Assembly (NCBI GenBank): GCA_020060105.1 | Contig: JAGVAV010000031.1 | Coordinates: 1-55,247, forward strand | Origin: Candidatus Woesebacteria bacterium | Lineage (GTDB): Bacteria > Patescibacteriota > Microgenomatia > Woykebacterales > 2-01-FULL-43-14 | Length of the DNA stretch: 55,247 nucleotides | Direction: 5' to 3' | Part shown: one piece after another, positions 6,701-52,548 of the stretch | Layout of the letters: each line of letters begins with the position of its first letter | Position numbering within the stretch: position 1 is the stretch's first letter | The notes under the pieces: model-generated | Seen by the model: only the letters and a program-made list of their open reading frames with translations | Databases searched by the model: none | What the model was told of the DNA's origin: nothing | Made by a program: the position numbers and the translations under genes

Positions 6701-7558
6701 TTAGTTCTTTGCTACTGTTCCATTTACCAAATTTATGGTTATCAGGACCTGCTTGTAATCAGGAACAGTATTGGCTTTAAATGTAATCGTTTTGGCAGTG
6801 GCATCATAATCAATAGAGCTGGTTGTCTCGAACTGCTCTTTTACCTCAACGGACTTGAGGGTTTTCAAGTCAATAACAGCCGTCGTCGCAGAAGTGAAAC
6901 CTTGAGCGAGACGGATAAGGTAAGCGAAGTCATCAGTGTACTGATACTCTATAGTGTAACCACAAGCATCCATACATCTCCCAACTGCCTCTTCTGGTCC
7001 TAAAAGCGTTCGGAATGTCTTGTCACTTACCGAGTATAACCTAACTGTTTTTTCTCCATCGGTAAAGATTAGCCTATCATCATCAAGCCAGTGAAGATTA
7101 TCTCGATAAACGAAGTCTTTATGGTTAGTCAACTGAACTGAATTCGTACCGTCCGTACTAGTGAGCCAAACATTAGTAGAAGTTCTTACGTACCCCACAT
7201 CAACTTTTTCATTTTCCAGCGATTCCTTACTTTTTGATAGATAAGCTATTTTTGTCTTATCAGGCGATAAAACGGGCGACGAATTGTAACCCCAAGAAGT
7301 AATTTTTGACTCTTTATCGTTTTTTACAACTACAATATCCCCGTTTTCCACCTTTACGCTTATGATAGAAAAGGCGGGTTTATTATCTCCCGCTAGTTTT
7401 GATTTAGAAAAGAAAACAAAATATGCCGCTCCGACGGTAAGGGTAGTTAAGATAGCAGCAATGATTCCAAGCGTAAGAAGAGTCTTTGACGCGGGAGGGG
7501 AGGTGGAAAATCCAACGTTTTCCGGCGAATTTATCTCATCCATTGCTTTAATAATCAC
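6701..7558 (-). CDS. Membrane-anchored protein with PD40/TolB-like beta-propeller repeats (tentative)
   Basis: N-terminal TM helix (LLTLGIIAAILTTLTVGAAYFVFF) followed by an SPDKTKIAYLS-type repeat signature. Confidence 0.5.
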   Translation of the reverse strand: MIIKAMDEINSPENVGFSTSPPASKTLLTLGIIAAILTTLTVGAAYFVFFSKSKLAGDNKPAFSIISVKVENGDIVVVKNDKESKITSWGYNSSPVLSPDKTKIAYLSKSKESLENEKVDVGYVRTSTNVWLTSTDGTNSVQLTNHKDFVYRDNLHWLDDDRLIFTDGEKTVRLYSVSDKTFRTLLGPEEAVGRCMDACGYTIEYQYTDDFAYLIRLAQGFTSATTAVIDLKTLKSVEVKEQFETTSSIDYDATAKTITFKANTVPDYKQVLITINLVNGTVAKN

Positions 7559-7609: not shown

Positions 7610-8644
7610 TTGGCAACCAAAGGCTTAGATGTTAAAATGATTTTAGTGACTATGGCTGCCCAAAGCATTATCGAAAAACTTAAAGCCAGCAATCTTTTAG
7701 GCCGCGGTGGGGCGGCTTATCCGACTTGGCAAAAATGGACCGCCGTCAAAGAAGCCAAAGCGGACAAAAAATATATTATTTGTAACGCTTCAGAAGGAGA
7801 ACCCGGCGTTTACAAAGACGGCTTTATCCTCGAAAACTACCCCGAAGAGCTCATTAATGGCCTAAAAATAGCCTTAGAAACGATTGATCACAGCCGCGCT
7901 TATCTTTATCTTCGCCATGGCTACTATCAAAGGTTCAAGAAGAATCTTGAAAAGTTAACTAGAGGCTTACCCATCACGCTTTTTGAAAAGAGCGGCCACT
8001 ACATCAGCGGGGAGGAAACGACGGTAATTGCCACAATCGAAGGGAAGAGGCAAGAGCCGAGCCTAAAACCCCCCTTTCCCACCCAGGCAGGCCTTTGGGG
8101 ATACCCTACCCTGATAAATAATGTCGAAACCTTCTATTACGTCTCCAAAATTGAAAAAGACAGTTACCATCAAACTCGCCTTTACTCGGTTAATGGGGAA
8201 GTCGAAAACGGCGGAGTTTACGAATTACCCTTAAACTGGCCAATTGAAAAAGTCTTGAAGGAAACGAAAAACTGGCCGGGATTTGACTTTTTCGTCCAGG
8301 CCGGGGGCGGGGCGGCGGGGGAAATCTTGCTGCCGGAAGAACTAGGTCAACCTATCGCCGGCGCGGGAGCAATCATTGTTTACCACCGGCAGAAGACTAA
8401 TCCTTTAACACTTATGAAAAAATGGGCGATCTTCTTCATGGACGGCAACTGTGATAAATGCGTTCCCTGCCGAGAAGGGGTTTTTCGGATCGCGGAAATG
8501 CTGGAAAGCGAGAAGGTTGATCGGAAGATAATTGATGATCTTTGCTTTGTCTTAGAAAAAACCAGCTTTTGCCCGTTAGGCCGAAGCACCGTCATCGCGT
8601 TTCGGAGTTTAACAAATAAACTCCTTTCTTGCCAATATGAATAA
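7610..8644 (+). CDS. NuoF-like NAD(P)H/FMN-binding subunit (HydB-like hydrogenase partner)
   Basis: Contains GRGGAAYPTWQKW (the NuoF GRGGAGFPTG-type motif), CNASEGEPG and C-terminal 4Fe-4S ligands CDKCVPCREG...FCPLG. The start is uncertain: TTG at 7610, or ATG at 7637 or 7652. Confidence 0.82.
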   Translation: MATKGLDVKMILVTMAAQSIIEKLKASNLLGRGGAAYPTWQKWTAVKEAKADKKYIICNASEGEPGVYKDGFILENYPEELINGLKIALETIDHSRAYLYLRHGYYQRFKKNLEKLTRGLPITLFEKSGHYISGEETTVIATIEGKRQEPSLKPPFPTQAGLWGYPTLINNVETFYYVSKIEKDSYHQTRLYSVNGEVENGGVYELPLNWPIEKVLKETKNWPGFDFFVQAGGGAAGEILLPEELGQPIAGAGAIIVYHRQKTNPLTLMKKWAIFFMDGNCDKCVPCREGVFRIAEMLESEKVDRKIIDDLCFVLEKTSFCPLGRSTVIAFRSLTNKLLSCQYE

Positions 8645-10355
8645 AAAGAATCGAATTGAAATCAGCATTGATCAGAAAAAACTTACCGCTTTCGAAGGGC
8701 AAACCATCTTGGAAGTCGCCGACGCTTACGGTATTGAGATTCCCACTCTATGCTCTCATCCGGATTTAACCATTAAGGCCAGTTGTCGCGTCTGTTGCGT
8801 CGAAATATTGGGTAAAGAGGCTTTCGCCCCTGCCTGCTCCACAAAGGTCGAAAACGGAATGGAAATCATCACTCTCTCCCCCGATTTAAGAAGAGCGAGA
8901 GAAATAAACCTTGAACTTATCTTTGCCCAGCACTGCCAAAAATGTCCTGACTGCATTTGGCAATTTAACTGCCAGCTTTTAAACTTGGCCCGGAAATTCG
9001 AAATTCGAATTAACAAGTTCACCGACCGAAAAATCGCTTATCCGACTTATCAGTTTGGCCCGGCAATAACCTTTGACAGTTCAAAATGCATCGACTGCCG
9101 AAACTGTGTGGAGGTTTGTGAAAAACAAAATGTAAAATTTCTGGAAGTTAAAGAAAGAGGCCATCTTTTTCAGGTTGTCCCCTCCCGAAGTGAGGAAAGA
9201 GACTGTATTTATTGCGGACAATGCGTTGTTCACTGCCCTGTTGGAGCTCTAGAAGCGGTTGGGGAATTTGAGGAAGTGGAAAAACCTCTCTGGGAACAAG
9301 GAAAGACAGTCGTTTTTCAATTCGCCCCTTCGGTTCGGTCCAGTATTGGGGAAGAATTTGGCCTACCGTACGGAACAGTCGTAACCGAAAAACTAACTGC
9401 CGCCCTTCGTAAACTAGGCGCCGATCGAGTCTTTGACGTTGGGGTGGGAGCGGATTTCACCACCGTTGAGGAAGCTAAGGAACTCCTCGAACGGTTAGAA
9501 AGCCAAAAAAACCTTCCGATGTTTACCTCTTGTTGTCCCGCCTGGGTAAGGTACGTTGAATTTTTTCACCCTGAACTAATTCCTAATTTAACGACGACCC
9601 GTTCGCCTCACATTATTCTTGGCGGCCTGATCAAAACTTATTGGGCGGAAAAAGAAAGTGTCGACCCGGAAAAAATCGTGGTCGTCTCGATTATGCCTTG
9701 CACCGCCAAGAAGTATGAAATCAAAAGAGAAGAATTAAAAATTAATGGTTTAAGACCAGTTGATCACGTTTTAACCACTCGAGAACTCGCTTATTTATTG
9801 ATTAAACACAAGATAGATTTGAAAACCATTCCTCCAGAGCCACCAGACTATCCGTTAGGTTCATCCTCCGGCGCCGGCTTGATTTACGGCGCCAGCGGAG
9901 GGGTAATGGAATCCGCTTTAAGAACGGCTTTTGAGAAGTTAACTGGCCGGAAACTCCCAAGAATTGAATTTGAAGAAGTCCGAGGTTTACAGGAAGTGAA
10001 AAAGGCAAGCATTAAAATTGGCCAGCACCAACTCTCCCTGGCAGTGGTTAATGGAACAGGCAACGCCGAAACAATCATCAACCAGTTAAAGAGCAATCCT
10101 CGAGAATATGATTACATCGAGGTCATGGCCTGTTTCGGTGGTTGTATTGGCGGAGGAGGCCAACCGGTTCCAACTAACGCCAAGATAAGGCGAGCAAGAG
10201 CGAAAGCCTTATATCAAGCGGATGCGGCCAAAGAAATCCGCCAGGCCCATAAAAATCCTGAAGTCGTCGAAGCTTACCAAAAATACTTAACGACCAAAGA
10301 AAAAATTAGCCAAGTTTGCTTAACAAAGTTTTTCCCTAAAGAAAAAGAAAACTAA
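8637..10355 (+). CDS. hydA: [FeFe]-hydrogenase catalytic subunit
   Basis: All three H-cluster motifs are present: TSCCPAW, MPCTAKKYE and EVMACFGGCIGGGGQP. The N terminus has a 2Fe-2S ferredoxin fold, an HxxxCxxCxxxxxC site and two CxxCxxCxxxCP sites. The ATG overlaps the upstream stop (ATGAATAA). Confidence 0.92.
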   Translation: MNKKNRIEISIDQKKLTAFEGQTILEVADAYGIEIPTLCSHPDLTIKASCRVCCVEILGKEAFAPACSTKVENGMEIITLSPDLRRAREINLELIFAQHCQKCPDCIWQFNCQLLNLARKFEIRINKFTDRKIAYPTYQFGPAITFDSSKCIDCRNCVEVCEKQNVKFLEVKERGHLFQVVPSRSEERDCIYCGQCVVHCPVGALEAVGEFEEVEKPLWEQGKTVVFQFAPSVRSSIGEEFGLPYGTVVTEKLTAALRKLGADRVFDVGVGADFTTVEEAKELLERLESQKNLPMFTSCCPAWVRYVEFFHPELIPNLTTTRSPHIILGGLIKTYWAEKESVDPEKIVVVSIMPCTAKKYEIKREELKINGLRPVDHVLTTRELAYLLIKHKIDLKTIPPEPPDYPLGSSSGAGLIYGASGGVMESALRTAFEKLTGRKLPRIEFEEVRGLQEVKKASIKIGQHQLSLAVVNGTGNAETIINQLKSNPREYDYIEVMACFGGCIGGGGQPVPTNAKIRRARAKALYQADAAKEIRQAHKNPEVVEAYQKYLTTKEKISQVCLTKFFPKEKEN

Positions 10356-15511: not shown

Positions 15512-16138
15512 ATGATTGACCGCAAAAAGGAAGAGGGTTTAACCAAAAGGCAAAAACAGACTTTGATGTTTATTTATAAATCTATCCGCTCCTGCGGTTT
15601 TCCTCCCACTTTGGAAAACCTGAGGGAAGAATTGGGGGTATCTTCAAATCAGGCCGTCTTAGATCTTTTAAAAATTCTCGAAAATAAAAAGTATATCAAG
15701 AAAAAGGAGGGAATGGCACGAGGACTGAAAATCACCCAAAAAGGCTATGACGAACTTAAGGTTTCCACCTATGTCCCAATGGTCGGGGTCACTTCTGCCG
15801 GACCTTTCATGGAAACTCTGGAACAGTATGGGGAGTGGAAACGGCTTTCAGGAGAGATAGCCAAACTAACCGACAAAGTAGGACTTTTCAAGGTTAATGG
15901 AGACTCGATGGTTGGAGCAGGAATTAACGATGGGGACATTGTGGTGGTCAAAGAAGATTCTGAATTTAAAAATGGCGATATCGTGTTAGCGAGAAATGAA
16001 GATGGAACCACGATCAAAAGATTTGTCAGCGCCAACGGTAAAACTTACCTGGCTCCAGAAAATCCTAAGTATGATAAAATTCCGATCACCCCGGAAACAA
16101 GGTTAGTGGGTAAGGTTATTTCCAAGTTGGAGATATAA
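15512..16138 (+). CDS. lexA: LexA repressor (S24 peptidase)
   Basis: N-terminal winged helix (LTKRQKQTLMFIYKSI...FPPTLENLREELGVSSNQAV), a catalytic Ser in VNGDSM and a Lys in TIKRF. Confidence 0.88.
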   Translation: MIDRKKEEGLTKRQKQTLMFIYKSIRSCGFPPTLENLREELGVSSNQAVLDLLKILENKKYIKKKEGMARGLKITQKGYDELKVSTYVPMVGVTSAGPFMETLEQYGEWKRLSGEIAKLTDKVGLFKVNGDSMVGAGINDGDIVVVKEDSEFKNGDIVLARNEDGTTIKRFVSANGKTYLAPENPKYDKIPITPETRLVGKVISKLEI

Positions 16139-16187: not shown

Positions 16188-16742
16188 ATGAAACATAAAA
16201 GAGAAACTGTCTATGCTTTCATAGATAGTCAAAATTTAAATTTAGGGACAAGTAAAAACATTTACCGCAGTAGGGAACTTATTTATAGAGGATGGGGGTT
16301 GGATTTCAAAAAGTTTAGAAAATATCTATCTGATAAGTTTAGAATTAAAAAAGCATTTTTATTTCTAGGTTATATTAAGCAAAATGAAGGAATGTATAGA
16401 TGTATGAAATCTTTTGGTTACGAGTTAATATTTAAGCCCACTGTTAAAGATAATCAGGGTAAACCAAAAGGCAACGTCGATGCAGAATTAGTCCTTCATT
16501 CTGCAAAAATAGAATATGAGAATTACGATAAAGCAGTTATTGTTTCAGGTGATGGGGATTTCTACTGTCTGCATGAATTCTTGAAGAAAAACAATAAATT
16601 ATTGAATATAGTTATTCCTAACCATCATTCAGAATCAAGTTTATTAAGAAAATTTCAAGAACACAAAATCTTTTTGTATCGAGAGAAAGATAATTTGGAA
16701 TTAGAGCATAAAAAGTGGGAGGCGTCGCACATAGACACGTAG
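16188..16742 (+). CDS. NYN (LabA-like, PIN-related) domain protein, putative RNase
   Basis: VYAFIDSQNLNLG at the N terminus, DAELV and VIVSGDGDFYCL together match the NYN acidic-residue pattern. The gene is AT-rich like the adjacent cas genes. Confidence 0.65.
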   Translation: MKHKRETVYAFIDSQNLNLGTSKNIYRSRELIYRGWGLDFKKFRKYLSDKFRIKKAFLFLGYIKQNEGMYRCMKSFGYELIFKPTVKDNQGKPKGNVDAELVLHSAKIEYENYDKAVIVSGDGDFYCLHEFLKKNNKLLNIVIPNHHSESSLLRKFQEHKIFLYREKDNLELEHKKWEASHIDT

Positions 16743-16961
16743 TCTATGGGTCGTATTCTCCCTAGTGATTAATTAAAATTATACTTGATTTTTCGAAGAT
16801 AGTCAAGATATCAAGCGGGCACCCACTCCTGAAACACGTTCTCGATTACAATACTCGCAAATTTTAATCTACGACGTAACGACCTTTTTGGGAATTGTTG
16901 TTTTGAAATGGTTTTTGAACAAGATTAGTTGGCAAAGTTATTTATAAGCTGGAGGTTTAAA

Positions 16962-19900
16962 ATGCAAACAAAAAATTTTATGAGCTTTTCTGATTTCACT
17001 AACCTTTACGCGCTCTCAAAAACTTTGCGGTTTGAATTGAGACCAATTGGACGTACAGAAGAATTTTTTAAGAAAAACAAAGTTTTTGAAAAAGATAAAA
17101 CTATTAATGACAGTTATAATCAGGCTAAACTGTATTTTGATGAAATGCATCGCCGATTGATTAGAGATGCCTTGAATACACAGAACACTTCTGCATTAGA
17201 TTACGAAAAATATGCAAAGCACTGGAAAGAACTCCAAAAAGACAAGGGTAAATATATTCAAAATTGGAAAGACGCGCAAAAGGAATTTAGGGAATGTATT
17301 TCCAATCTTTTGGATCAGCAAGCGGAACAGTGGAAATCGAAGTATGCGTCAGTTGGTTTGAATAAAGCTGACATAAAACAGAAAGGCACTGATTTTCTTA
17401 GCTCTGCAGGTATGGTGAAAATTTTAAAGAAAGAGTTTCCTAAAGAAGCGGAAAATCAACTTGTCAAAGAAGGTTTTCCAAGCTTATTTATTCAAAAGGC
17501 TGAAGCTCCAGAACAAAAGCAGTATATTTTTGATAGTTTTGACAGATTCTCAACATACTTAGCAAAATTTAACCAAACCCGAGATAATCTTTATAAAGAC
17601 GACGGAACTCCTACAGCAATAGCGACAAGGGTAGTCGAAAACTTTGTGGCTTTCTTGCAAAATCAAGCTATTTTTAACAACCACTACATATCGCTAAAAA
17701 GCGAGCTTGATTTCTCACGAGAAGAAATAGATTGTTTTACAGCAAATTACTATGTACGTTGCTTACTGCAGGAAGATATTGATGAGTATAACAAAACTAT
17801 CGGTCAGATAAACGCTCGCATTAAAGAACTTCGTGACCGTAAACAAAAAGAAAGCGATTTTAAAAAATCAGGCTATCCGTTGCTAAAATCTTTGAATAAG
17901 CAAATCCTCGGGAAAATTGAAAAGAAAAGGCAGTTCATTGAAAACAAAGCAGACGTCTTTCCCGCTTTTAGCGAACTTATTGAGCAGGCAAACGCACGAC
18001 TTACTGCATTAAGGCAGTTAATAAACAATCTTTGTGAAGAAGTGTTTGAAGAAGCGTATGGGGGCATTTACATAAAAAATACTGGTATTAATACCATTTC
18101 TCGCCGGTGGTTCGCAAGCTGGTATGATTTTGAAATTGCTTTACCACAAAAAAGTAAAAATGAGGAAGAATCAAAAGTAGTAACATTTGTATCGCTTCAG
18201 GATATTAAAGATACTTTAGAAAATAAGTTAAGTGGAGATATATTTAAGGAAGAGTATTACAAGAAAAAAATAATCAATAAAGAACAAAGCAATTGGAAAC
18301 AAATTTTGGCGATTCTACAAAATGAGTGGAATGAGCTTTTCAGCGAATACCAAAAGGCGCTTGAAAATACCAAGAAGCTTGATCTAAATTCTGTTTTCTC
18401 AAATAGTAAAGAACAAGTAGAAATTATTAAAAGTTTTGCAGATGCTTCTTTACGCGTTTATCAAGTGGTTAAATATTTTGCCCTCGAGCATAAAAAGTCG
18501 GATGAGATTCCCAGTTCTTACAGTACTGATTTTTATGAGGAGTTTGATAAGCAGTATAACAATTTTGAGTTTATTCCTTACTATAATGCATTAAGAAACT
18601 TTCTCACAAAAAAGGTAGTTGGGGAAAATAAAATAAAAATTAATTTTGAAAAAGGTAACTTACTTAACGGTTGGGCAGAAAGTCCTGAGGGTAATGCTCA
18701 ATTTTGTGGCTACATATTAAAAAAAGAAAATAAATATTTTTTAGGTATAACTGATCAACCTACAATACTTGATACTAAAGATAACCCCAGCTTAACCAAC
18801 ATAACAGATAAGGAATATTACGAAAAAATGGCTTACCGTCAACTGAAATCAACAACAATTTATGGTTCTGGCTATGAGGGTTTATATAACAGTAAGTATG
18901 CAAACGACAAAAAGTACATCAGTGAAAGTAAAATTATAGAGCGAGTTAAAAAATTACTGCAGGAAAAATATCTTACGCGTTTTCCGGAACTTAAACAGAT
19001 TATTGAGAAAGAATATAAAGATGCAAATGAACTTGCTAAAAACCTAGGAAACTTTAATTTATATAGTTTAGAATTTATTCCTGTCAATAAGAATTATATT
19101 GAAAAATTAACACATGATAAAAATGGAAGTATTAAATACTTATATATTTTTGAAATTGCGAACAAAGATCTCGGGAAAATAACACCTAGGAAATACAATA
19201 TACATTCTCTTTATTTTAAAAATCTTTTTAGTGAAGATAATTTAGAAAAACCGGTATTTAAATTAAGTGGTGGAGCAGAGATATTTTTTAGACCTAAAAC
19301 AGTGAATTTACCAAAGAAAAAAGATAAAGCAGGCAAAGATATTATAGATCATAAAAGATATGCCCAAGACAAGCTGTTCTTCCATTTACCAATTGTTATC
19401 AACTTTGGAGCTGGGAAGGTAGGAAAGTTTAACCAAGAGCTAAATAAAAAATTATTGGCTGGCAATAAGAATATAAATATAATAGGGATAGACCGCGGTG
19501 AAAAACATCTAGCCTACTATTCTGTCATAAATCAAAAAGGTGAGATTATTGAACAGGATAGTCTAAATGAAATAAATGGTGTCAACTACTATGGTCTGCT
19601 CCAAAAGCGTGAAAAAGAACGTTTGGAAAATCGTAAGTCTTGGCTCCCGCTTCAGCAAATTAAAGATCTCAAAAGAGGCTATATTTCACAGGTTGTTTAT
19701 AAAATTGTTAGGTTAGCAATAGAACATAACGCTATTATTGTATTAGAAGATCTTAATATGCGCTTTAAACAAATCCGCGGAGGTATTGAAAAAAGTATTT
19801 ATCAACAACTGGAGAAAGCATTAATTGATAAACTTGGCTACCTCGTTTTTAAAGATCGCAATGCAAAAGAAGTTGGAGGTGTCCTACAAGGGTATCAACT

Positions 19901-20753
19901 TTCAGCACCTTTCGAGTCATTCCAAAAGATAGGAAAGCAAACCGGCATCATATTCTATACTCAAGCAAGCTATACATCGGTTACAGATCCTTTAACTGGA
20001 TTTAGGAAAAATATTTACGTTAGTAATTCTGCTCCAATCGAAAAAATAAAAGTTGCAATAAATAATTTCGAGGAAATTGGTTGGGATGATGTAGTACAAA
20101 GCTACTTCTTCAACTATGACACGAAAAACTTTTCTAATGGTAATGATATCCAATCAAAAAAATGGAAAATCTATGCCAAAGTCCCGCGTATTAAAAGAGA
20201 AAAAGTTAACGGGTACTGGCAATACAACGATGTTGATCCAAACGATATGCTCGAAAAACTTTTTAGGCTCTATGAATTTAAAAACCTTCGCAGTAATATG
20301 CTGGAACAAATCCATGCAAAAGAAACTAATGGGGAGCTTCGAGGGGAACGTGATTTTGATAACAAGCCGAGAAATTTCTATCAGTCATTAGTTTATATCT
20401 TGAATCTTATTTTACAACTAAGAAATTCTACTTCAAAACAGATAAAACTGAACGAAAAAGAAGATGTTTATGAAACAGGAGAAGATGTTGACTTTATCGC
20501 TTCGCCAGCGTATCCATTTTTCACTACGCTTAGCAGTAAATCAAATAGTAATCTCGCGGGCTTCGAAAACCGCTTTACAGGACTAAATCACGATCAGGAA
20601 CAAAAAAAGTTTAATGGGGATGCAAATGGAGCTTATAACATCGCACGCAAGGGAATAATAATTCTTGAAAGGATTACTAAAAATTCAGATAAACCAAATC
20701 TCTATATAAGCAATGAAGATTGGGATAAATTTGTTTCTCAAAGTTACCCCTAG
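16962..20753 (+). CDS. cas12a: Cas12a (Cpf1), type V-A CRISPR effector nuclease
   Basis: GGAGG lies 7 nt upstream of the ATG at 16962; the track's TTG at 16929 is unlikely. The N terminus FTNLYALSKTLRFELRPIGRT is the hallmark Cas12a start. Split RuvC motifs are IIGIDRGE (D844), IVLEDLN (E929) and GDANGAYNIARKG (D1220). A KRY..DKLFFHLPI segment is present and no HNH insert. Length 1263 aa. Confidence 0.95.
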   Translation: MQTKNFMSFSDFTNLYALSKTLRFELRPIGRTEEFFKKNKVFEKDKTINDSYNQAKLYFDEMHRRLIRDALNTQNTSALDYEKYAKHWKELQKDKGKYIQNWKDAQKEFRECISNLLDQQAEQWKSKYASVGLNKADIKQKGTDFLSSAGMVKILKKEFPKEAENQLVKEGFPSLFIQKAEAPEQKQYIFDSFDRFSTYLAKFNQTRDNLYKDDGTPTAIATRVVENFVAFLQNQAIFNNHYISLKSELDFSREEIDCFTANYYVRCLLQEDIDEYNKTIGQINARIKELRDRKQKESDFKKSGYPLLKSLNKQILGKIEKKRQFIENKADVFPAFSELIEQANARLTALRQLINNLCEEVFEEAYGGIYIKNTGINTISRRWFASWYDFEIALPQKSKNEEESKVVTFVSLQDIKDTLENKLSGDIFKEEYYKKKIINKEQSNWKQILAILQNEWNELFSEYQKALENTKKLDLNSVFSNSKEQVEIIKSFADASLRVYQVVKYFALEHKKSDEIPSSYSTDFYEEFDKQYNNFEFIPYYNALRNFLTKKVVGENKIKINFEKGNLLNGWAESPEGNAQFCGYILKKENKYFLGITDQPTILDTKDNPSLTNITDKEYYEKMAYRQLKSTTIYGSGYEGLYNSKYANDKKYISESKIIERVKKLLQEKYLTRFPELKQIIEKEYKDANELAKNLGNFNLYSLEFIPVNKNYIEKLTHDKNGSIKYLYIFEIANKDLGKITPRKYNIHSLYFKNLFSEDNLEKPVFKLSGGAEIFFRPKTVNLPKKKDKAGKDIIDHKRYAQDKLFFHLPIVINFGAGKVGKFNQELNKKLLAGNKNINIIGIDRGEKHLAYYSVINQKGEIIEQDSLNEINGVNYYGLLQKREKERLENRKSWLPLQQIKDLKRGYISQVVYKIVRLAIEHNAIIVLEDLNMRFKQIRGGIEKSIYQQLEKALIDKLGYLVFKDRNAKEVGGVLQGYQLSAPFESFQKIGKQTGIIFYTQASYTSVTDPLTGFRKNIYVSNSAPIEKIKVAINNFEEIGWDDVVQSYFFNYDTKNFSNGNDIQSKKWKIYAKVPRIKREKVNGYWQYNDVDPNDMLEKLFRLYEFKNLRSNMLEQIHAKETNGELRGERDFDNKPRNFYQSLVYILNLILQLRNSTSKQIKLNEKEDVYETGEDVDFIASPAYPFFTTLSSKSNSNLAGFENRFTGLNHDQEQKKFNGDANGAYNIARKGIIILERITKNSDKPNLYISNEDWDKFVSQSYP

Positions 20754-20756
20754 GAT

Positions 20757-21296
20757 ATGGATTCAGCTATACCAATTTCTGCTATAAATGATTTTCTTTT
20801 CTGCCCGAAATCACTCTATCTGCATAGTGTGTATAGCTCCTTTGCGACTAACACCTATCATGACACACCGCAAATCCAAGGCGGAATCGCTCACGAAAAT
20901 ATTGAAAAAGGACAATACACTACCTCCAAACATGTTTTGCAGGGACTATCTGTTTACAGTGAAAGACTAGGGGTAAAAGGGAAAATAGATATTTACGATA
21001 TGGAAAAGGGGTTTTTAATCGAACGGAAATACAGAGTAAAACAGCTTTACAAAGGCTTTCAATACCAGCTCTATGCCCAGATGTATTGCCTGGAAGAAGC
21101 GGGATTTTCTGTGAAGCGGTTGTTTATTCAATCGCTTTCTGATAACAAACGCTATGAAATTGCCCTTCCGGCCGAAAAAGAAAAACAGGAATTTGAAAAA
21201 GTAATTGCCGAAATGAAAGCGTTTAACGCCATCGCTCTTTCAAATCACTCGTGTAGTCGTTGTCAAAATAACATTTATGGATTGTTAAATTGGTAA
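20757..21296 (+). CDS. cas4: Cas4 (RecB-like nuclease)
   Basis: N-terminal Cys (FLFCPKS), D..ExK nuclease motif (IDIYD...LIERKY), QxxxY (QYQLYAQ) and C-terminal CSRC. Sits 3 nt after cas12a. Confidence 0.85.
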   Translation: MDSAIPISAINDFLFCPKSLYLHSVYSSFATNTYHDTPQIQGGIAHENIEKGQYTTSKHVLQGLSVYSERLGVKGKIDIYDMEKGFLIERKYRVKQLYKGFQYQLYAQMYCLEEAGFSVKRLFIQSLSDNKRYEIALPAEKEKQEFEKVIAEMKAFNAIALSNHSCSRCQNNIYGLLNW

Positions 21297-21300
21297 AACC

Positions 21301-22254
21301 ATGTTGACACTTCCTGATTTCAAAGAAAAAAGAATTTTATCTGTTCAGGCCGATTACGGCCACGATAACTTATTGCAGTTAATCAATGACAACATTCGTT
21401 TCGCCCGCGACGGTGAGGGAGTGAGTCAAATATCAAGCCATTTAGTTTTTGCTGTTTTTATTATTGGGGACATGAGTGTTACCACCACTCTTCTTAAAAA
21501 GCTTACTGAACAAGGTATTTCCATTTTTTTTCTCAATCATAATCTGGCCGTAAAGGCGGTGATGATAGCGGAAGCGGAAGGAAATTACCTCCTTCGTCAA
21601 AAGCAGTACACCACAGCCGATGAGTTGAATATTGCAAGAAGAATTGTCGAAAATAAAATAATTTCTCAAGAGGCAGTTCTGAAAAAATGTCAGAAGGCGT
21701 ACCAGCTAAAAGTATTTGAGCGGGCCAGAGTAATGCTAAAAACTGCTAAAGATAGAGAAAAACTACTTGGGATAGAGGGAAACGTGGGGAAAGAATATTT
21801 CCAATCGTTGTTTGCCGATCTGGGCTGGGTTCGCCGTGCTCCGCAAACAAAAGAAGATATCCCTAACCTATTGCTTGATATTGGCTATACCTACCTCTTT
21901 AACTACTGCGACGCGCTCTTGCGCCTGTTTGGCTTTGATACCTACAAAGGCTACTATCACCAGTTATTTTTTCAGCGAAAATCTTTGGTATGTGATGTTA
22001 TGGAGCCGATGCGTCCGATCATTGACTATCAATTACTCAAAAGCTTCAATCTTAAGCAAGTAAAAGAAAAAGATTTTGTCTTTAAAAACGGCAGATTTGA
22101 CTTTAAAGACGGGTTTAAAACCAGTAAATTGTACAGTCCAATATTTTTGGAGACAATAAATGGGCGCAAAGAAGAAATTTACACTTATGTGCTTAACTTT
22201 TACCGTTATATAATGGACAACAAAAAGTATCAATTCCCGAAATTTATTATCTAG
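21301..22254 (+). CDS. cas1: Cas1 integrase
   Basis: 317 aa with GIEGNVGKEYF and GYYHQLFFQRKSLVCDVMEPMRPIID, which follow the Cas1 E/H/D-E active-site pattern. Sits 4 nt after cas4. Confidence 0.9.
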   Translation: MLTLPDFKEKRILSVQADYGHDNLLQLINDNIRFARDGEGVSQISSHLVFAVFIIGDMSVTTTLLKKLTEQGISIFFLNHNLAVKAVMIAEAEGNYLLRQKQYTTADELNIARRIVENKIISQEAVLKKCQKAYQLKVFERARVMLKTAKDREKLLGIEGNVGKEYFQSLFADLGWVRRAPQTKEDIPNLLLDIGYTYLFNYCDALLRLFGFDTYKGYYHQLFFQRKSLVCDVMEPMRPIIDYQLLKSFNLKQVKEKDFVFKNGRFDFKDGFKTSKLYSPIFLETINGRKEEIYTYVLNFYRYIMDNKKYQFPKFII

Positions 22255-22258
22255 ATCT

Positions 22259-22540
22259 ATGCTTATTGTCTCGTACGATTTTGCCAACGATAAAACCAGA
22301 ACAAGGTTTGCCAAGTTTTTAAAAAAGTATGGCTGGCGGATGCAGTATTCCGTGTTTGTGGTGAAAAACAGCCCCAGGATTTTACGCAACATTTTGACGG
22401 AAATCGATGCCCGCTATCAAAAGTTGATTAAGGACACTGACAGCATCGTGATTTTTCCGGTGTGTCTGAGTTGTAAAGGAAAAATAATCAGGTACGGTTG
22501 CGCAAGACATGAGCTTGACAATGTGGTATACTTTGAGTAA
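22259..22540 (+). CDS. cas2: Cas2
   Basis: 93 aa with an MLIVSYDF...RTRFAKFLKKYGWRMQYSVFVV ferredoxin-like Cas2 signature. Sits 4 nt after cas1. Confidence 0.85.
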   Translation: MLIVSYDFANDKTRTRFAKFLKKYGWRMQYSVFVVKNSPRILRNILTEIDARYQKLIKDTDSIVIFPVCLSCKGKIIRYGCARHELDNVVYFE

Positions 22541-22722
22541 GAACACTAAGTCAAATACGGGTAGCACATTGACAACTAATGACTAAAGTGGAAGTGTTAC
22601 TGTTTATATTTGAAGAAACCTTAGTCTTTATGAGCCTGTTTTTTGTTATTTTGAACTTAAAACCTAAAGTCTTCGCCAGCTGGCGGATTGCATCTTTAGC
22701 TTGTTCTGACAAGAAACAGGCT
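22541..22722 (+). promoter_or_regulatory. CRISPR leader (AT-rich)
   Basis: 182 nt between the cas2 stop and the first repeat. It contains a repeat-like half-site (22551-22570) and the palindrome CGCCAGCTGGCG (22674-22685). The promoter itself was not pinpointed. Confidence 0.5.
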
Positions 22723-23256
22723 CTCAAATACAAATAGTCCATTTCTACTTTTGTAGATAGCCAACTTCTTTTGCATTGCGATCTTCTCAAATACAAATAG
22801 TCCATTTCTACTTTTGTAGATAGATTTCTATTTGGCGGGGCGGCCCAACCTCAAATACAAATAGTCCATTTCTACTTTTGTAGATCACAAATAGTACCCA
22901 TCATCTGTCACTCAAATACAAATAGTCCATTTCTACTTTTGTAGATTCTTCCATTTCGCTTGCCTCTCCCAAACTCAAATACAAATAGTCCATTTCTACT
23001 TTTGTAGATCTGCCGAGAGGATCGGCTCCGGCGACTCAAATACAAATAGTCCATTTCTACTTTTGTAGATTACTGGTAGAAGTGTTGCTTTGTGCCTCAA
23101 ATACAAATAGTCCATTTCTACTTTTGTAGATCTACTAGGGCTCCAAACGGCGGTAGCTCAAATACAAATAGTCCATTTCTACTTTTGTAGATGAGATAGC
23201 ACTCTCTGCAAGTCTTTGCTCTCAAATACAAATAGTCCATTTCTACTTTTGTAGAT
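22723..23256 (+). CRISPR. CRISPR array: 9 identical 36-nt repeats and 8 spacers (25-28 nt)
   Basis: Repeat is CTCAAATACAAATAGTCCATTTCTACTTTTGTAGAT, starting at 22723, 22786, 22850, 22911, 22974, 23035, 23096, 23157 and 23221. Its 3' end folds as TCTAC-TTTT-GTAGA, which is the Cas12a crRNA handle and sets plus-strand orientation. Confidence 0.97.
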
Positions 23257-23346: not shown

Positions 23347-23769
23347 ATGAAAATCCTGCCAAACCTCATAAATGAAAAGCTGTGGAAATCCTTATCCTTA
23401 ATCTTCTTTTTGTTTTTGCTTTTGTTTACCTTTTCTCTCTTAAAGCCCGGGGCGGCGGAAGCGGGGCAAATTACGGATATCAGCCTTTCGGTCAATACCG
23501 CCACGAAATCGGCTACCGCCACCTATAGCGCCACGTTTACTGTCGAAAATGAAATCCCCTCTTCAGGCGGCCGGATCAACCTGGAATTCTTTGGCCCAAA
23601 CTGGAATTATCCTAATTTTAATAGCGCCACGGTTGGCAGCGAAACCTCCCCGAATACCATTAGCATTTATTCTCGAAGTTACAATTATATTATTTTCAGC
23701 ACCTCCCAGGCCATCAGCGCCGGGACAGAGGTCACTTTAAAAATTGAAAACTCACCAATCCTTCGGTAG
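23347..23769 (+). CDS. N-terminal fragment (signal peptide plus first module) of a frameshifted LPETG surface protein
   Basis: Signal peptide LWKSLSLIFFLFLLLFTFSLLKPGAAEA. The frame ends at TAG 23767, but the neighbouring frame continues the protein from 23748. Confidence 0.6.
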   Translation: MKILPNLINEKLWKSLSLIFFLFLLLFTFSLLKPGAAEAGQITDISLSVNTATKSATATYSATFTVENEIPSSGGRINLEFFGPNWNYPNFNSATVGSETSPNTISIYSRSYNYIIFSTSQAISAGTEVTLKIENSPILR

Positions 23770-23861
23770 GCGGTTATTATTTCGCCCGTCTCTATACTTC
23801 CCAGTGGAGCACCCCTATTGACGGATCAAGCAACTGGGGCGGAAACTACCAAACTCCTTAT

Positions 23862-26800
23862 GTGGAAATCGGCAGTAACACCAACGTCAAAGGAACGGTG
23901 ACCAAGGCGGATGGAACCACGCCGATTCCTTTTGTTAATGTCTACATCTATAATAGTAACTGGACAAGCTATTACTACACCTACACGGATAAAAACGGAA
24001 ATTATGGTTTTGGTGACATCCCGGCCGGCAGTTATACCTTCTCCGTCTACTCGCCTCCTGCAACCAACGGAGAAAACTACTATCCCCCGGCTAACTCCAC
24101 CATCACCGTGGAAAGCTCTGGGGCAACCACGAAAAACATAAGTTTCTTGGCGGCCACTAAAACCCTCACCGGCCAAATTACCCGAACTTCCACCACCGGG
24201 GCGACAATCGCCGTTACCGACGCCAACGTTTGGGTCTCCAAGATTGGCGGTAATGGCTGGGCGAACGCTAACACCGACTCTTCAGGCAATTACTCCCTGA
24301 CTTTAACGGGAGGTTCCTGGTATATCGGCGTTAACCCCACTACCTGGCCTTCAGATTGGACTTACACTTATTCCAGTGAAACCATTTCTTTCGCGGACGA
24401 CACCACCACGGAAAGTAAAACTAAAAATTACACCGTGGAATCTCTTAACTCTACGGTCAACGGAAGTATTAAAAAGCCTGACGGATCTACCCCGGCTCAG
24501 TATTCCGTTGGTCTGAACTTATCCAACACCAAAAATCAATGGTATTACGCTTCGGTGGACGCTTCGGGCAATTTCACCGTCAAGGTCACCGCCGGAACCT
24601 ACTCCGTCAGTGGTTGGGTCACCGACTCAAATTACTCTTTTCCCAAGGTCGCAACTTTCACGGTTAATGAGAGTGAAACCAAAACTCTCGAGACCATCAC
24701 TTTGGTTGAAAAATCCGACACTATCTCGGGAACGATCTTGGATAATTTCGGCTCGCCGGTGGCCGGAGCTTCGATCAATGGCTGGAAAAGCAACGGCAGC
24801 TGGGACTGGTCAAGTGCCACCACCGATACGAACGGAAATTACACTCTAAAAGTCACTCCCGGCACTTGGCAAGTGAACGCTTGGCCTCAATGGGATTCAG
24901 GTTATGTTTACTCAGGACAGCCAGTCTCCGTCAGCGTCACTTCCGGAGTCACCGCGACTAAAAACTTTACTTTCCAAAAAGCCACCGTCACCGTTAATGG
25001 CACGGTCACTGATCCGGACGGTAACGTGCTCACTACTCTCTATGCCTGGGCCTCAGCCAACGACGGCTCCCAGCAGTGGAGCAATGTTGGGGCTTCGGTT
25101 AACAACGGAAAATTCACCATGAAAATTCCCGCCGGAACTTGGGATATTAGCGTCTACATCTACGCCGCTGAATACGGCAGCCCAGATCCAAAGAGCATCA
25201 CCGTCGTTGATAATGAAACGGTCTCCGTCACTCTTGCCGCGGTTAAGTACGACGCCACGATCAGCGGCACGGTTTACGATGAATCAAACAATCCAGTCAC
25301 TAGCACTTGGATGAGCATCTACGCCACTAAAGGTAAATACGGCGCTTGGCAGTCGGCTAACTTTGATCAAGCCAATGGAACTTATTCAATCAAAGTTTCG
25401 GCCGGAACTTGGAAGTTAGGCTGGTGGGTTGATCCCAACTTGGGCTACAGCTCAGGAACCGGCCAAGACACTGAGGTTACCGTCGCTTCCGGAGAAACTA
25501 AAACTCACAATATTACCCTTAAAAAAGCGGATTCTACCATCAGCGGAACCGCAAAAAATTCAGAAGGCGGGGCGGTGGCTTGGGCTTGGGTTAACGCCGA
25601 TTCGCGAGACCCGAACGAAAAAGTTTCGGCTGACACCTACTATTATAGTAACGGTACTTCCAGCGCGAGCACCGGAGAATACACCCTCAAGGTTCCGGCC
25701 GGAACCTACTGGGTTGGGGCAAACATGTGGCCCGGGTCTGGCTATATCAATCCAAAACGAGAAAAAGTCAGCGTCGACGCCAATAATCCGGCCACGGTTA
25801 ACCTAGTTTTCCGCAAGGCTGACGCCAGCATAACCGGTAAGGTCACCTTAGACGGCACTGGGACAAGCGCTTTTATCAGCGCCTATAGTGAAGACGGCGG
25901 ATACGCCGAAACCAATTCTAGCAACGCTGGTGAGTACACTCTTTCCGTTTCCAGTGAAACCAAGTGGCATCTGAAAGCGATCAAACAAGTCGATAAAGAC
26001 ATTTATAAATCCAGCGAGGCAATCGTCGATCTGACCCAGGCCACTACAGGCAGTCAGGATTTGGTTCTGGCCAAAAAGAGCTATTCCTTACCCGACGCCG
26101 TCACCGTTACCTTTGACGCGACAAAACAACAAACGATCAAGCTTGACGATGAAACGACTATCAACATCCCAGCCAACACCGCCACCTCTTCCGGAAACGT
26201 GACCCTAACCGCTCAACCTGAAGCCAATCTGGCCGAAGAAGCCGACGCCAAACCCGTTTCATACGGCTACGATCTTAACATCGTCGATTCCAACGGGAAG
26301 GAAATTACCGAATTTACCGGTAACGTCACCATCGAGGTTAAATACGAAGACGAATGGATTACCGACAGTGGTTTAATTGACGAGAAAGAGCTAAAAGCCG
26401 CTTACTATGACGAATCAGCTGGAACCTGGATAGAGCTGGGCAGCGTGACGGTCAATGAAACGGAAAAAACAGTCACCTTCCAAACTGACCACTTCACAAA
26501 ATTTGCCGTAGTCGGAGCGGCCGATACCACCCCGCCCGCCGCGCCCACTAACCAAGCCGCGAGTGCCGGGGACAGTAAGGTAAGCTTAAGTTGGACCAAT
26601 CCAACTGACGCGGACCTTAACGGAATCAATATTTATCGCTCAACCACTTCTGGAGTCCTGGGAACGCGAGTTCATAGCAGCGTCACGGGGACTAGTAAAG
26701 ACGATACGGACCTAACTAACGGGACAGCTTACTATTACACCTTAAGAGCGGTGGATAAATCAAACAATGAGTCTACCAACACCACTCAAATCTCCGCCAC

Positions 26801-26966
26801 TCCTTCAGCGGCCGCTTCTACAACAACTACTACCACTACAACTACAAGTACAAGTAGCAGTAATCTTCCCGAAACCGGCCGAGAAACAATTTCGCTAGTA
26901 ACTATTTTAACGCTCCTTATTATCAGTTTCTTATACTTAACCTTTCCCCACCGGCGTTTTTCCTAA
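23862..26966 (+). CDS. Large surface protein with carboxypeptidase-regulatory-like repeats, FN3 and a Thr-rich stalk, ending in an LPETG sorting signal (C-terminal part of the split gene)
   Basis: Many repeats of the form G(T/S)(V/I)xDxxGNPV...V...tdxxGnYtl. Also FN3 (VSLSWTNPTDADLNGINIYR), a poly-Thr stalk, LPETG (26865-26879), a TM helix and an HRRFS tail. This frame is open from 23748. Confidence 0.75.
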   Translation: MEIGSNTNVKGTVTKADGTTPIPFVNVYIYNSNWTSYYYTYTDKNGNYGFGDIPAGSYTFSVYSPPATNGENYYPPANSTITVESSGATTKNISFLAATKTLTGQITRTSTTGATIAVTDANVWVSKIGGNGWANANTDSSGNYSLTLTGGSWYIGVNPTTWPSDWTYTYSSETISFADDTTTESKTKNYTVESLNSTVNGSIKKPDGSTPAQYSVGLNLSNTKNQWYYASVDASGNFTVKVTAGTYSVSGWVTDSNYSFPKVATFTVNESETKTLETITLVEKSDTISGTILDNFGSPVAGASINGWKSNGSWDWSSATTDTNGNYTLKVTPGTWQVNAWPQWDSGYVYSGQPVSVSVTSGVTATKNFTFQKATVTVNGTVTDPDGNVLTTLYAWASANDGSQQWSNVGASVNNGKFTMKIPAGTWDISVYIYAAEYGSPDPKSITVVDNETVSVTLAAVKYDATISGTVYDESNNPVTSTWMSIYATKGKYGAWQSANFDQANGTYSIKVSAGTWKLGWWVDPNLGYSSGTGQDTEVTVASGETKTHNITLKKADSTISGTAKNSEGGAVAWAWVNADSRDPNEKVSADTYYYSNGTSSASTGEYTLKVPAGTYWVGANMWPGSGYINPKREKVSVDANNPATVNLVFRKADASITGKVTLDGTGTSAFISAYSEDGGYAETNSSNAGEYTLSVSSETKWHLKAIKQVDKDIYKSSEAIVDLTQATTGSQDLVLAKKSYSLPDAVTVTFDATKQQTIKLDDETTINIPANTATSSGNVTLTAQPEANLAEEADAKPVSYGYDLNIVDSNGKEITEFTGNVTIEVKYEDEWITDSGLIDEKELKAAYYDESAGTWIELGSVTVNETEKTVTFQTDHFTKFAVVGAADTTPPAAPTNQAASAGDSKVSLSWTNPTDADLNGINIYRSTTSGVLGTRVHSSVTGTSKDDTDLTNGTAYYYTLRAVDKSNNESTNTTQISATPSAAASTTTTTTTTTSTSSSNLPETGRETISLVTILTLLIISFLYLTFPHRRFS

Positions 26967-48365: not shown

Positions 48366-50090
48366 TCACAGTTGCCAATCCCTTTTCAAGTAACTAAAAT
48401 CTATTCCGTTAACTCTATTGTCTGAATAAATGTCTGCCGAAGAAGTCGCGGGGTTAAACCAATTGTTAAAAAGAATCGCCGCGTCGGTAGCGTTAACTAA
48501 GTTATCGTTATTTAAATCAGCAGAGCCGGTTATTGGGACTGCTCCATATTGAGCCAGGATTGGATAGATGGTGTTGGTCACAGAGAAGTTTTGAAGTTCT
48601 GGATTGTAAACATCATAAGGATCACCTGGTTCTAAAGTATAATATTTAACCAGATGAGTTCTAAATTCTTCCCTGATTCTCTCTTCCATCGGCCAGGGCC
48701 ACAAGAGTTGTGCAGGAGTGCCGTCTGAACCGTCCTTTAAGACTCCATCAATATATCTATACTGCAATCTGGCTCCTCCTCCTTGATACGAAGTGTCTCC
48801 AATAAAGCTGTCTTCAATACTTGAATAACCCTCAAGACCATAACCATTTACCCCGGCTCCTTCAGCTGGCTCGGGATCACCGATACCGTTATTGACAGCA
48901 GTAACCCGGACCAGTCGGTTATTACTTCCGCCACTGTCACCAGTTATTCCTACTCCCCCATTACCCCAGGCAAACAAATCCTGAATTAAGGTATCAACCA
49001 CTGGATCAATAATACCAGCTCCTTTACGCACGCCATTCCAACCAGAAAGTTGAGTACACTGTCTATTGGCATAAGTTCCCCCATAAGGATAAGGACAAGG
49101 CCAAGTCATGGAAGTTCCATCCCATTTCATCCCCATCCCAATAGCCATAGAACCTAATATTTTATTACCGGAAACGTTAGCCGCTACTCCACTTTGATTC
49201 TGAATGTTGAAACCATTGGTGGCCATTCCATAAACAATGTTGTTTTCAATGGTGTGATTAGCCCCACCATAGAGTTCTATCGTGTCCTGCCACGGCCAAG
49301 CACCAGGATCAAAATTTATTCCTCTCCATTCCAAAGAAGCAGCAAAGCAACGACGGAAAGTGTTATTTGACCCGCCAAAGCTATAAATCATCTTTCGACC
49401 TGAACCAGCCGCCACACAATCTTCAACCAAATTATTACTGTTATTTGTCAAGAGTCCTATGACGGCAGCGTTCTCATCAGTGTGAGCATTATAGGCAGAG
49501 ATCCGGCGTAAGATATTGTTATGTCCCCAAATACTAATCGTACCGTATCTCCCGTTTTTAACCACCAGTCCCTCAACAACAAAGTAATTTCCGACTGGGT
49601 TTTGGCCAGATTCACCCGTCCAGGTATCTCCTAAGTGAAAAGGTACTAAGTCTCCTATCCCATCACCATTTGTATCTCCATCAATAACAGCCTTACCATC
49701 ATTTTTAGCTCTAATGGTAATAGGTTTGCCAGCCTCTCCATTTCTTTTGTTCGGATTTAACCTTTGACGATAAACTCCATCAAGTAAGATGAGAGTATCT
49801 CCAGGATAAAGCAGTTCCCAGGCTTTATTAAAGGTAGCTAAAGGAGTAGTTTCAGAAAGGCCATCATTTTGATCATTACCGGGCGGAGAGGTTGGGGAGA
49901 TGTAGTAAGTCGTTCCACCAGTTTGAGCTTGAGTTTCAGAAGAAAAGTTAAAATTCTTCGGAAAGAAATTAAAGATAAGGTAAGAAAGACTAAAAAAGAG
50001 AGTAAAAAGTAAAATTAATTTTGGAAACTTCACCTTAAATAACTTAGCCTTGACTAGAAGTTGTAAATTGGAAATTCTAAATTTTATCAT
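48366..50090 (-). CDS. Secreted right-handed beta-helix protein with C-terminal dockerin
   Basis: N-terminal signal/anchor and beta-helix-type repeats (NNILRRISAYNAH, NNLVEDCVAAGSG, NNIVYGMATNGFNIQN). The C-terminal duplicated Ca-binding segments are DLNNDNLVNATDAAIL and DIYSDNRVNGIDFSYL. Confidence 0.65.
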   Translation of the reverse strand: MIKFRISNLQLLVKAKLFKVKFPKLILLFTLFFSLSYLIFNFFPKNFNFSSETQAQTGGTTYYISPTSPPGNDQNDGLSETTPLATFNKAWELLYPGDTLILLDGVYRQRLNPNKRNGEAGKPITIRAKNDGKAVIDGDTNGDGIGDLVPFHLGDTWTGESGQNPVGNYFVVEGLVVKNGRYGTISIWGHNNILRRISAYNAHTDENAAVIGLLTNNSNNLVEDCVAAGSGRKMIYSFGGSNNTFRRCFAASLEWRGINFDPGAWPWQDTIELYGGANHTIENNIVYGMATNGFNIQNQSGVAANVSGNKILGSMAIGMGMKWDGTSMTWPCPYPYGGTYANRQCTQLSGWNGVRKGAGIIDPVVDTLIQDLFAWGNGGVGITGDSGGSNNRLVRVTAVNNGIGDPEPAEGAGVNGYGLEGYSSIEDSFIGDTSYQGGGARLQYRYIDGVLKDGSDGTPAQLLWPWPMEERIREEFRTHLVKYYTLEPGDPYDVYNPELQNFSVTNTIYPILAQYGAVPITGSADLNNDNLVNATDAAILFNNWFNPATSSADIYSDNRVNGIDFSYLKRDWQL

Positions 50091-50173
50091 GGCTTAAGCT
50101 AATTATGTCAAAGGAAAGCTTCTTTGTCTAGTTTGAGAATAGATGCCTTATAGCTGGCTCTGATCAAATTCTC

Positions 50174-51148: not shown

Positions 51149-51195
51149 CCCTATCTTCCTTGCAGATTAACACTTTTTAAAGGCCCTTTTTCACC

Positions 51196-51231
51196 GATCA
51201 GTCCAGTTCGGCTCGCCGAACTGGACTGATC
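51196..51231 (-). terminator. Perfect 16-bp stem / 4-nt loop hairpin between two cohesin genes
   Basis: GATCAGTCCAGTTCGG-CTCG-CCGAACTGGACTGATC. A T tract (TTTCTT) lies on the plus side only, so terminator function for the minus-strand genes is uncertain. Confidence 0.4.
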
Positions 51232-51254
51232 TTTCTTGGCCTTAAGTTTTATCT

Positions 51255-52463: not shown

Positions 52464-52548
52464 ATAGGCAGCCTCCTAAAAAGTACTTTAACTTGTTATC
52501 TCACTTTAGTTATTTTTGAAATCTTGCGCCAATCTTTATCAGCGTTGG

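Follow-up and report, generated by a model that had tools for sequence, protein, structure and literature searches.

A Cas12a of the Candidate Phyla Radiation: intact and probably active, with a histidine-less RNase pocket that may retain non-canonical self-processing

The stretch of DNA considered here, hereafter the window, comprises 55,247 nucleotides (nt) of a genome assigned to Candidatus Woesebacteria (contig JAGVAV010000031.1) and carries a cas12a-cas4-cas1-cas2-array operon of CRISPR type V-A. Our subject is the product of its cas12a gene, a protein of 1263 amino acids (aa), and in particular the segment of that protein in which characterized Cas12a enzymes hold the site for cleaving their own precursor CRISPR RNA (pre-crRNA). 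The operon is laid out as follows.

16951-16955, + strand: ribosome-binding site GGAGG (Shine-Dalgarno), 6 nt 5' of the ATG
16962..20753, + strand: cas12a coding sequence, 1263 aa plus stop, uninterrupted (TIGR04330, PADLOC, Foldseek)
20757..21296, + strand: cas4 of type V (TIGR04328, 202 bits)
21301..22254, + strand: cas1 (Pfam Cas_Cas1, 2.5e-49; TIGR04329, 286 bits, just under the cut-off of 300 bits)
22259..22540, + strand: cas2 (Pfam, NCBIfam)
22541..22722, + strand: presumed leader of 182 nt, placed by its position between cas2 and the first repeat
22723..23256, + strand: CRISPR array, in which the 36-nt repeat CTCAAATACAAATAGTCCATTTCTACTTTTGTAGAT occurs nine times without variation, separated by eight different spacers (25-28 nt)

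The ATG at 16962 is preferred as the start of the open reading frame (ORF) over an upstream TTG at 16929 because of the GGAGG that precedes it by 6 nt. An earlier reading of the same DNA, made from the letters alone (the original prediction), had proposed this 1263-aa frame, and its translation does end in a stop and places all of the motifs listed there at the residue numbers given to them. The array repeat closes in the 3' handle CAUUUCUACUUUUGUAGAU, which holds the canonical V-A stem-loop UCUAC-UUUU-GUAGA-U (hairpin energy -4.8 kcal/mol). The operon is complete, bears a V-A handle and gives no sign of a trans-activating CRISPR RNA (tracrRNA), and no anti-repeat of at least 14 nt was found in the 55-kb window. 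Scans for promoters and terminators returned counts that were not above chance.

The ORF encodes a genuine, intact Cas12a, the effector of type V-A systems, and its match to the family lies far beyond chance. Pfam searches of the product returned RuvC_1 (E=1.4e-82), REC1 (4.5e-22) and NUC (9.8e-15); the NCBIfam equivalog cas_Cpf1 (TIGR04330) scored 634 bits, where the cut-off is 300 bits, and the PADLOC Cas12a model scored 981 bits across residues 8-1260. An AlphaFold2 model spanning aa 540-1263, with the N-terminal 539 aa outside it, reached a predicted local distance difference test score (pLDDT) of 86 and a predicted template modelling score (pTM) of 0.84. All 50 of the PDB matches listed for this model by Foldseek, on which our statements about fold rest, are Cas12a, with query-normalized template modelling scores (TMq) of 0.58-0.72 and E values down to 3e-48. 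The best PDB match in both sequence (E=3.1e-131) and fold is ReChb, a resurrected ancestral Cas12a (8QWD-8QWF). The window protein is 33% identical to FnCas12a and 30% identical to AsCas12a. It is like FnCas12a, AsCas12a and LbCas12a (e.g., 5NG6, 5B43, 5XUS) in domain order, RuvC triad, Nuc arginine, bridge-helix tryptophan and the equivalents of As R790 and F864, as well as in its cas4-cas1-cas2-array operon, its handle AUUUCUAC-N4-GUAGAU and its fold (TMq 0.6-0.72). Residue equivalences throughout were drawn from phmmer comparison with PDB Cas12a chains and from a MAFFT alignment with FnCas12a and AsCas12a, whose full-length sequences come from supplementary file 5 of PMC9811890 (the Cas12a sequence set of Dmytrenko et al. 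2023); the reference segments, including those of AsCas12a and LbCas12a, were confirmed to be identical to PDB chains. Counts out of 120 refer to the 120 nearest homologues, and counts out of 80 to the top 80 GTDB loci.

The apparatus for cutting DNA is conserved in these alignments, and its parts are located at the following positions.

19479..19502, + strand: RuvC-I motif IIGIDRGE (aa 840-847) with catalytic D844 (19491-19493), equivalent to Fn D917 / As D908
19641..19643, + strand: bridge-helix tryptophan W894, equivalent to Fn W971 / As W958 by alignment
19737..19757, + strand: RuvC-II motif IVLEDLN (aa 926-932) with catalytic E929 (19746-19748), equivalent to Fn E1006 / As E993
19986..20507, + strand: Nuc domain PF18510 (aa 1009-1182; Pfam)
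20421-20423, + strand: Nuc arginine R1154, equivalent to Fn R1218 / As R1226 by alignment
20616..20654, + strand: RuvC-III motif GDANGAYNIARKG (aa 1219-1231) with catalytic D1220 (20619-20621), equivalent to Fn D1255 / As D1263

The single RuvC domain with D844, E929 and D1220 as its catalytic residues, as originally proposed, is borne out by the alignment of all three to the triads of FnCas12a and AsCas12a and by their conservation among the homologues: the D844 column holds D in 120/120, the E929 column E in 120/120, and the D1220 column D in 118/120, the remaining two being gaps. The absence of an HNH domain was likewise correctly read, as a Pfam search found neither HNH nor any other nuclease family even at E<=10. 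From the conserved RuvC, Nuc and bridge-helix residues, staggered PAM-distal cuts (PAM, protospacer adjacent motif) and collateral single-stranded DNase activity may reasonably be inferred, and the effector is probably active. By analogy with the family, Cas12a would bind the pseudoknotted repeat handle of the crRNA and then form an R-loop on double-stranded DNA; its one RuvC site would cut the non-target and then the target strand, leaving staggered PAM-distal ends, and collateral cutting of single-stranded DNA would follow target cutting.

The segment that processes guides is a different matter. Its features are these.

19269..19394, + strand: WED-III segment (aa 770-811), the site of the RNase pocket in characterized Cas12a (alignments)
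19293..19352, + strand: shortened basic loop/hairpin PKTVNLPKKKDKAGKDIIDH (aa 778-797; phmmer, MAFFT, AlphaFold2)
19353..19361, + strand: K798-R799-Y800, equivalent to Fn K871-R872-F873 (As R863-F864) and to SuCas12a2 K784-R785-Y786

The original prediction had assigned the RNase site to this stretch, and the alignments agree that it is the WED-III region holding that site in characterized enzymes, with GGAEIFFRPK at aa 770-779 and IIDHKRYAQDKLFFHLPI at aa 794-811. The accompanying claim, that the protein would process its own pre-crRNA by the WED His/Lys residues, fared worse: the same alignment to FnCas12a and AsCas12a that leaves the D/E/D triad intact shows two of these three residues to be lost. 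The counterpart of Fn H843 / As H800 is L783 according to phmmer (TVNLP versus KITHP) or a gap according to MAFFT, and no histidine occurs between residues 749 and 796 of the window protein. The position of Fn K869 / As K860 is taken, in alignment without gaps, by D796, with H797 next in the chain. The third residue, Fn K852 (in KNKDN) / As K809, plausibly corresponds to K785 (in KKKDK), an ambiguous match. The loop as a whole is 17 aa shorter than that of FnCas12a, and R777 is separated from R799-Y800 by 21 residues, compared with 38 in FnCas12a and 72 in AsCas12a. Retained within this reduced frame are R777, which equals As R790, and Y800, the counterpart of As F864, and AlphaFold2 predicts a short beta-hairpin at 785-787/793-795 (pLDDT 77-86).

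The short histidine-less loop is common to the whole CPR-type Cas12a clade (CPR, Candidate Phyla Radiation). Among the homologues, 95/120 have no histidine in the loop, whose median length is 19 residues and whose Lys/Arg content is about 30%, and lysine at the Fn K869 position is found in only 34/120. As the 95 without the histidine are likewise annotated or scored as Cas12a, these residues mark an activity and not membership in the family. R777 is invariant, R799 is present in 120/120, position 800 is Y or F in 120/120, and 94/120 have K or R at position 798. Among the GTDB loci, canonical H...K...K loops recur only in the lowest-ranked ones that are not of the CPR (L068, L070, L072). Rb1Cas12a, KaCas12a and many 'Cas12a/Cpf1' proteins from metagenome-assembled genomes (MAGs) of Patescibacteria share with the window protein the short loop with [DN]HKRY at its end, as well as the C-terminal GDANGAYNIARKG...WD; the Roizmanbacteria-type Rb1Cas12a is about 40% identical to it overall. 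ReChb, in contrast, keeps the long canonical loop (IVHKANEPIKNKN...DIIKDRRY), and its histidine lies in an inserted stretch for which the window protein has no counterpart.

How such a loop might be read depends on the precedent to which it is compared. In AsCas12a, the H800A mutant fails to process, whatever the dose or the time allowed, whereas the mutants K809A, K860A, F864A and R790A are only leaky (bioRxiv 10.1101/049122), and FnCas12a employs H843/K852/K869 for acid-base catalysis on pre-crRNA (PMC11127173). SuCas12a2, however, resembles the window protein in its minimal histidine-less pocket YR...K-R-Y and in its repeat family: its loop, which is shorter still and contains neither histidine nor lysine, reads YR774-TPIEGYPVQ-K784-R785-Y786, yet it cuts pre-crRNA at a point 1 nt downstream of where Cas12a does, and its K784/R785 mutants lose processing. 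Cas12a3 likewise processes pre-crRNA without the H/K/K triad (PMC13594972). Self-processing by the window protein therefore stays plausible, because SuCas12a2 manages it without a histidine through K784/R785, the counterpart of K798/R799. Moreover, arrays persist in the clade, with 2 to 75 canonical repeats, and so its crRNAs must be matured somehow. We propose that R777, the lysine-rich hairpin (K785-K792) and K798/R799/Y800 would together form the RNase pocket, and that maturation would be independent of His-843 and based on Lys/Arg chemistry, possibly assisted by H797, much as in Cas12a2; processing might be slower than that of canonical Cas12a, or shifted by one nucleotide. Weighing these precedents, we consider it somewhat more likely that self-processing persists in a non-canonical form than that it has been lost. 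The reading we favor, and hold to be reasonably probable, is of an intact, probably active V-A effector of the CPR whose RNase pocket lacks the histidine, whose non-canonical self-processing is retained, and whose PAM may not be TTTV.

Several points weigh against this reading. The canonical mechanism, taken together with the inactivity of As H800A and the missing histidine, would lead one to expect an RNase-dead protein. Within the loop, only R799, Y800 and K798 are conserved across the clade, a pattern that RNA binding could explain as readily as catalysis, and no processing test of a short-loop or CPR-type Cas12a was found in the literature searched. Finally, position -19 of the repeat is C rather than the A of the Fn and As repeats, in which substitution at -19 weakens cleavage (bioRxiv 10.1101/049122).

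The main rival, then, is a Cas12a that is RNase-dead and otherwise a normal RNA-guided DNase, its guides matured by the host: cellular RNases would cut the AU-rich, single-stranded 5' part of the repeat, and exonucleases would trim the product back to the protected handle. We consider this possible, if on balance doubtful. Its strength lies in the pocket itself, which lacks the one histidine whose loss ends AsCas12a processing and has an aspartate in place of Fn K869. It draws further on a neighboring gene.

16188-16742, + strand: NYN-domain gene (PF01936, predicted RNase), directly upstream of cas12a

The product of this gene, which also gives a weak PADLOC match to 'LabA-like NYN nuclease', would be a conceivable candidate for the endonuclease if the effector were RNase-dead, and a related locus (L073) also has an NYN homologue (6923-7357) about 650 bp upstream of its cas12a. 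That is the only such case among the related loci (1/80), however, which rules out a conserved partnership of the NYN gene with cas12a in processing; the two genes are probably neighbors by chance. Host-dependent maturation must also contend with the histidine-free cleavage that Cas12a2 and Cas12a3 carry out on the same WED scaffold, with the strict or nearly strict conservation of R777, K798, R799 and Y800, and with the long arrays kept throughout the clade in spite of small CPR genomes.

A second alternative would preserve the canonical acid-base chemistry by relocating the catalytic histidine from the strand of Fn H843 to H797, beside the K869 position. H797 is conserved in the nearest subclade (homologues P0003, 5, 6, 7, 8, 10, 16, 23, 27, 33, 44 and 55) and in 38/120 homologues overall, and the [DN]HKRY motif that contains it is shared by Rb1Cas12a and KaCas12a of the published set. 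Its occurrence is also nearly exclusive of K/R796: 42 of the 120 related sequences have K/R796, 38 have H797, and only 2 have both (Fisher test, p ~1e-6). This test is not relied upon, given the phylogenetic relatedness of the sequences, and the anticorrelation is confounded by shared ancestry. Another 42/120 homologues have neither feature, so that H797 is no clade-wide requirement, and strand alternation, as judged from sequence, would point H797 away from K798 and Y800. We regard relocation of the histidine as rather unlikely.

The second property on which the window protein departs from the characterized enzymes is the reading of the PAM, for which two regions are of concern.

18669..18686, + strand: WED-II motif GWAESP (aa 570-575), with P575 at the position of Fn K613 / As K548 (GWDKNK; alignments)
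~18843..19061, + strand: PI-domain region (~aa 628-700), in which the LPGxNKMLPKVFF loop with Fn K671 / As K607 is deleted (MAFFT)

The original prediction of a T-rich 5' PAM, made from family knowledge, is undermined by these two changes: P575 stands where FnCas12a and AsCas12a have K613 and K548, and the KMLPK loop bearing K671 and K607 is gone. With both PAM-reading lysines missing, a T-rich PAM is an unsafe prediction, and the PAM may differ from TTTV. For the PI stretch, phmmer gave no alignment with a PDB Cas12a, and the AlphaFold2 model shows it as helical (pLDDT 83-94); G637 aligns to Fn K677, and T198, the equivalent of As T167, is conserved. The first PAM-lysine column holds K in 81/120 homologues and P in 21/120. 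In Rb1Cas12a, KaCas12a and the majority of the clade, GWDKNK and a KMFPK loop with the PAM lysines are preserved, whereas the window protein belongs to a subclade with GWxxSP and no loop, which accounts for 21/120 homologues and 13/80 GTDB loci and to which the double loss of PAM lysines is limited. Spacers offered no further purchase on the PAM: spacers 2-8 (first 22 nt) and spacer 1 (25-nt core) had no exact match in IMG/VR, the spacer-1 core had none in the JGI metagenomes, and 156 concatenated spacers of the GWxxSP subclade drew no hit among GenBank phages.

These features could be carried a step further, to a distinct V-A sublineage (GWxxSP, missing KMLPK loop, Leu at the position of the catalytic His) with a non-T-rich PAM and with maturation that is either independent of His-843 or left to host RNases. 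We think this unlikely in so definite a form. Were it true, the targeting range of these effectors would be orthogonal to that of canonical Cas12a, and they might escape inhibitors that act on the processing site, such as AcrVA4.

One spacer of the array does find a match, within the effector gene itself.

19852..19878, - strand: protospacer-like sequence within cas12a (codons 964-973) that agrees with spacer 1 at 25/27 contiguous positions

Spacer 1 (22759-22785), the leader-proximal and newest spacer, is antisense to cas12a, with mismatches only at the PAM-proximal positions 1-2; the chance expectation of such a match is 1.6e-7. Its 5' flank on the minus strand is GGACAC. Among related loci, an all-against-all BLAST comparison of spacers returned no strong match other than this one. 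Cleavage by Cas12a depends on the seed and the PAM. Having no T-rich flank and two seed mismatches, the self-match should not be cleaved. If the distinct sublineage outlined above were real, spacer 1 with its GGACAC flank could either report the true PAM or be a non-cleaving autoregulatory guide.

A self-matching spacer at the leader end might also be tolerated in a system that is decaying or silenced, and the low-GC island in which the operon lies, probably acquired horizontally, would also favor that history. Against it, the four cas ORFs are intact and have kept the residues needed for catalysis, the nine repeats show no variation, and each of the eight spacers is unique. The two PAM-proximal mismatches together with the lack of a T-rich flank would by themselves prevent cleavage. 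We judge decay to be highly improbable. The protein might, in a last alternative, be no DNA-targeting Cas12a but an abortive-infection nuclease triggered by RNA, as Cas12a2 and Cas12a3 are. The short histidine-less WED-III loop is held in common with Cas12a2, both of those effectors share Cas12a repeats and are likewise without H/K/K, and a spacer-1 crRNA would be complementary to cas12a mRNA. This identity is effectively refuted by domain content, since the Nuc domain PF18510 and bridge-helix Trp are present (in SuCas12a2, which targets RNA, their place is taken by a zinc ribbon and an insertion domain, whereas the window protein has the C-terminal half of Cas12a), and further by the 634-bit and 981-bit scores of Cas12a models, by 30-33% identity to AsCas12a and FnCas12a along its whole length as against 10-20% to Cas12a for Cas12a2/Cas12a3, and by the listed fold matches, 50/50 of which are Cas12a.

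The window protein is a new ortholog within an already catalogued CPR Cas12a clade, and for purposes of annotation its locus is an ordinary Cas12a locus. The 120 top homologues and 80 top GTDB loci are nearly all from Patescibacteria. In a set of 5.8 billion sequences, the nearest protein is 53% identical by BLASTP and 57% by MAFFT alignment; no relative above ~57% identity was found in that set or in GTDB representative genomes, where the best by an alignment-based scan reached 52%, and the JGI metagenomes yielded no closer relative, their single match being 28% identical. The unusual lineage noted in the original prediction is thus confirmed by the CPR host and by a nearest homologue at 53-57% identity. 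Its description of the protein as compact holds within the clade, where the median length is 1322 aa and only 8 of the 120 nearest homologues fall below 1263 aa, and does not extend to the family at large, in which solved chains measure 1206-1365 aa.

Across the related loci, cas4, cas1 and cas2 are each detected in 62-68 of 80, mostly just 3' of cas12a, and 56/80 also have canonical V-A repeats. The window's Cas1, Cas2 and repeat (C at -19) are closest to those of three loci (L079, L027, L056; Cas1 67-81% identical) whose Cas12a is only 31-35% identical to that of the window, and the nearest relatives of the window effector carry different repeats. This combination of close Cas1, Cas2 and repeat with distant Cas12a shows that effector and adaptation modules have been shuffled. 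On the contig of homologue P0003 (L242, 8001-13791), a cas12a-cas4-cas1-cas2 set is inserted in the ribosomal-protein/secY-adk-map-infA cluster of a CPR genome, with no array evident directly 3' of its cas2.

Beyond the NYN gene, the upstream neighborhood includes one further gene.

15512-16138, upstream of cas12a: lexA (Pfam, NCBIfam)

The cas region (16500-22500) has a GC content of 30-39%, with 33% in the cas12a coding sequence, compared with 43-47% in its flanks, and such a low-GC island suggests that the operon was acquired horizontally. Elsewhere the window is chromosomal and encodes EF-Tu, EF-G, SecY, an FeFe hydrogenase and a histidine kinase; no rRNA was found in the window. SecY is 62-65% identical to proteins of Chisholmbacteria and Daviesbacteria MAGs, in a match list that is mostly CPR, and on these matches the host is taken to be a Microgenomates-like CPR bacterium; EF-Tu, 72-78% identical to proteins of many phyla, is uninformative in this regard. 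The gene for the FeFe-hydrogenase large subunit (8637-10355) serves as a host metabolic marker. Large predicted surface or secreted proteins with CarboxypepD_reg, fn3, TIG, cohesin and dockerin domains are encoded at 23347-26966 and 48366-55095 of this apparent CPR genome, and the ORFs at 23347-23769 and 23862-26966 may be one gene broken by a TAG.

The value of Cas12a is that guide maturation from the array and DNA cutting beside a T-rich PAM are combined in one protein, and it is precisely these two properties that the deviations described here affect. They are common to many database sequences, and a published mechanistic precedent exists for them. The CPR Cas12a clade is large, almost uncharacterized, and without the histidine that is indispensable for processing by AsCas12a. 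If the window protein still processes arrays, the Lys/Arg-only chemistry of Cas12a2 would also operate in a DNA-targeting Cas12a; if it reads a different PAM, a wider range of sites would become targetable. Should neither prove true, it would caution against transferring family knowledge to divergent orthologs from RuvC motifs alone.

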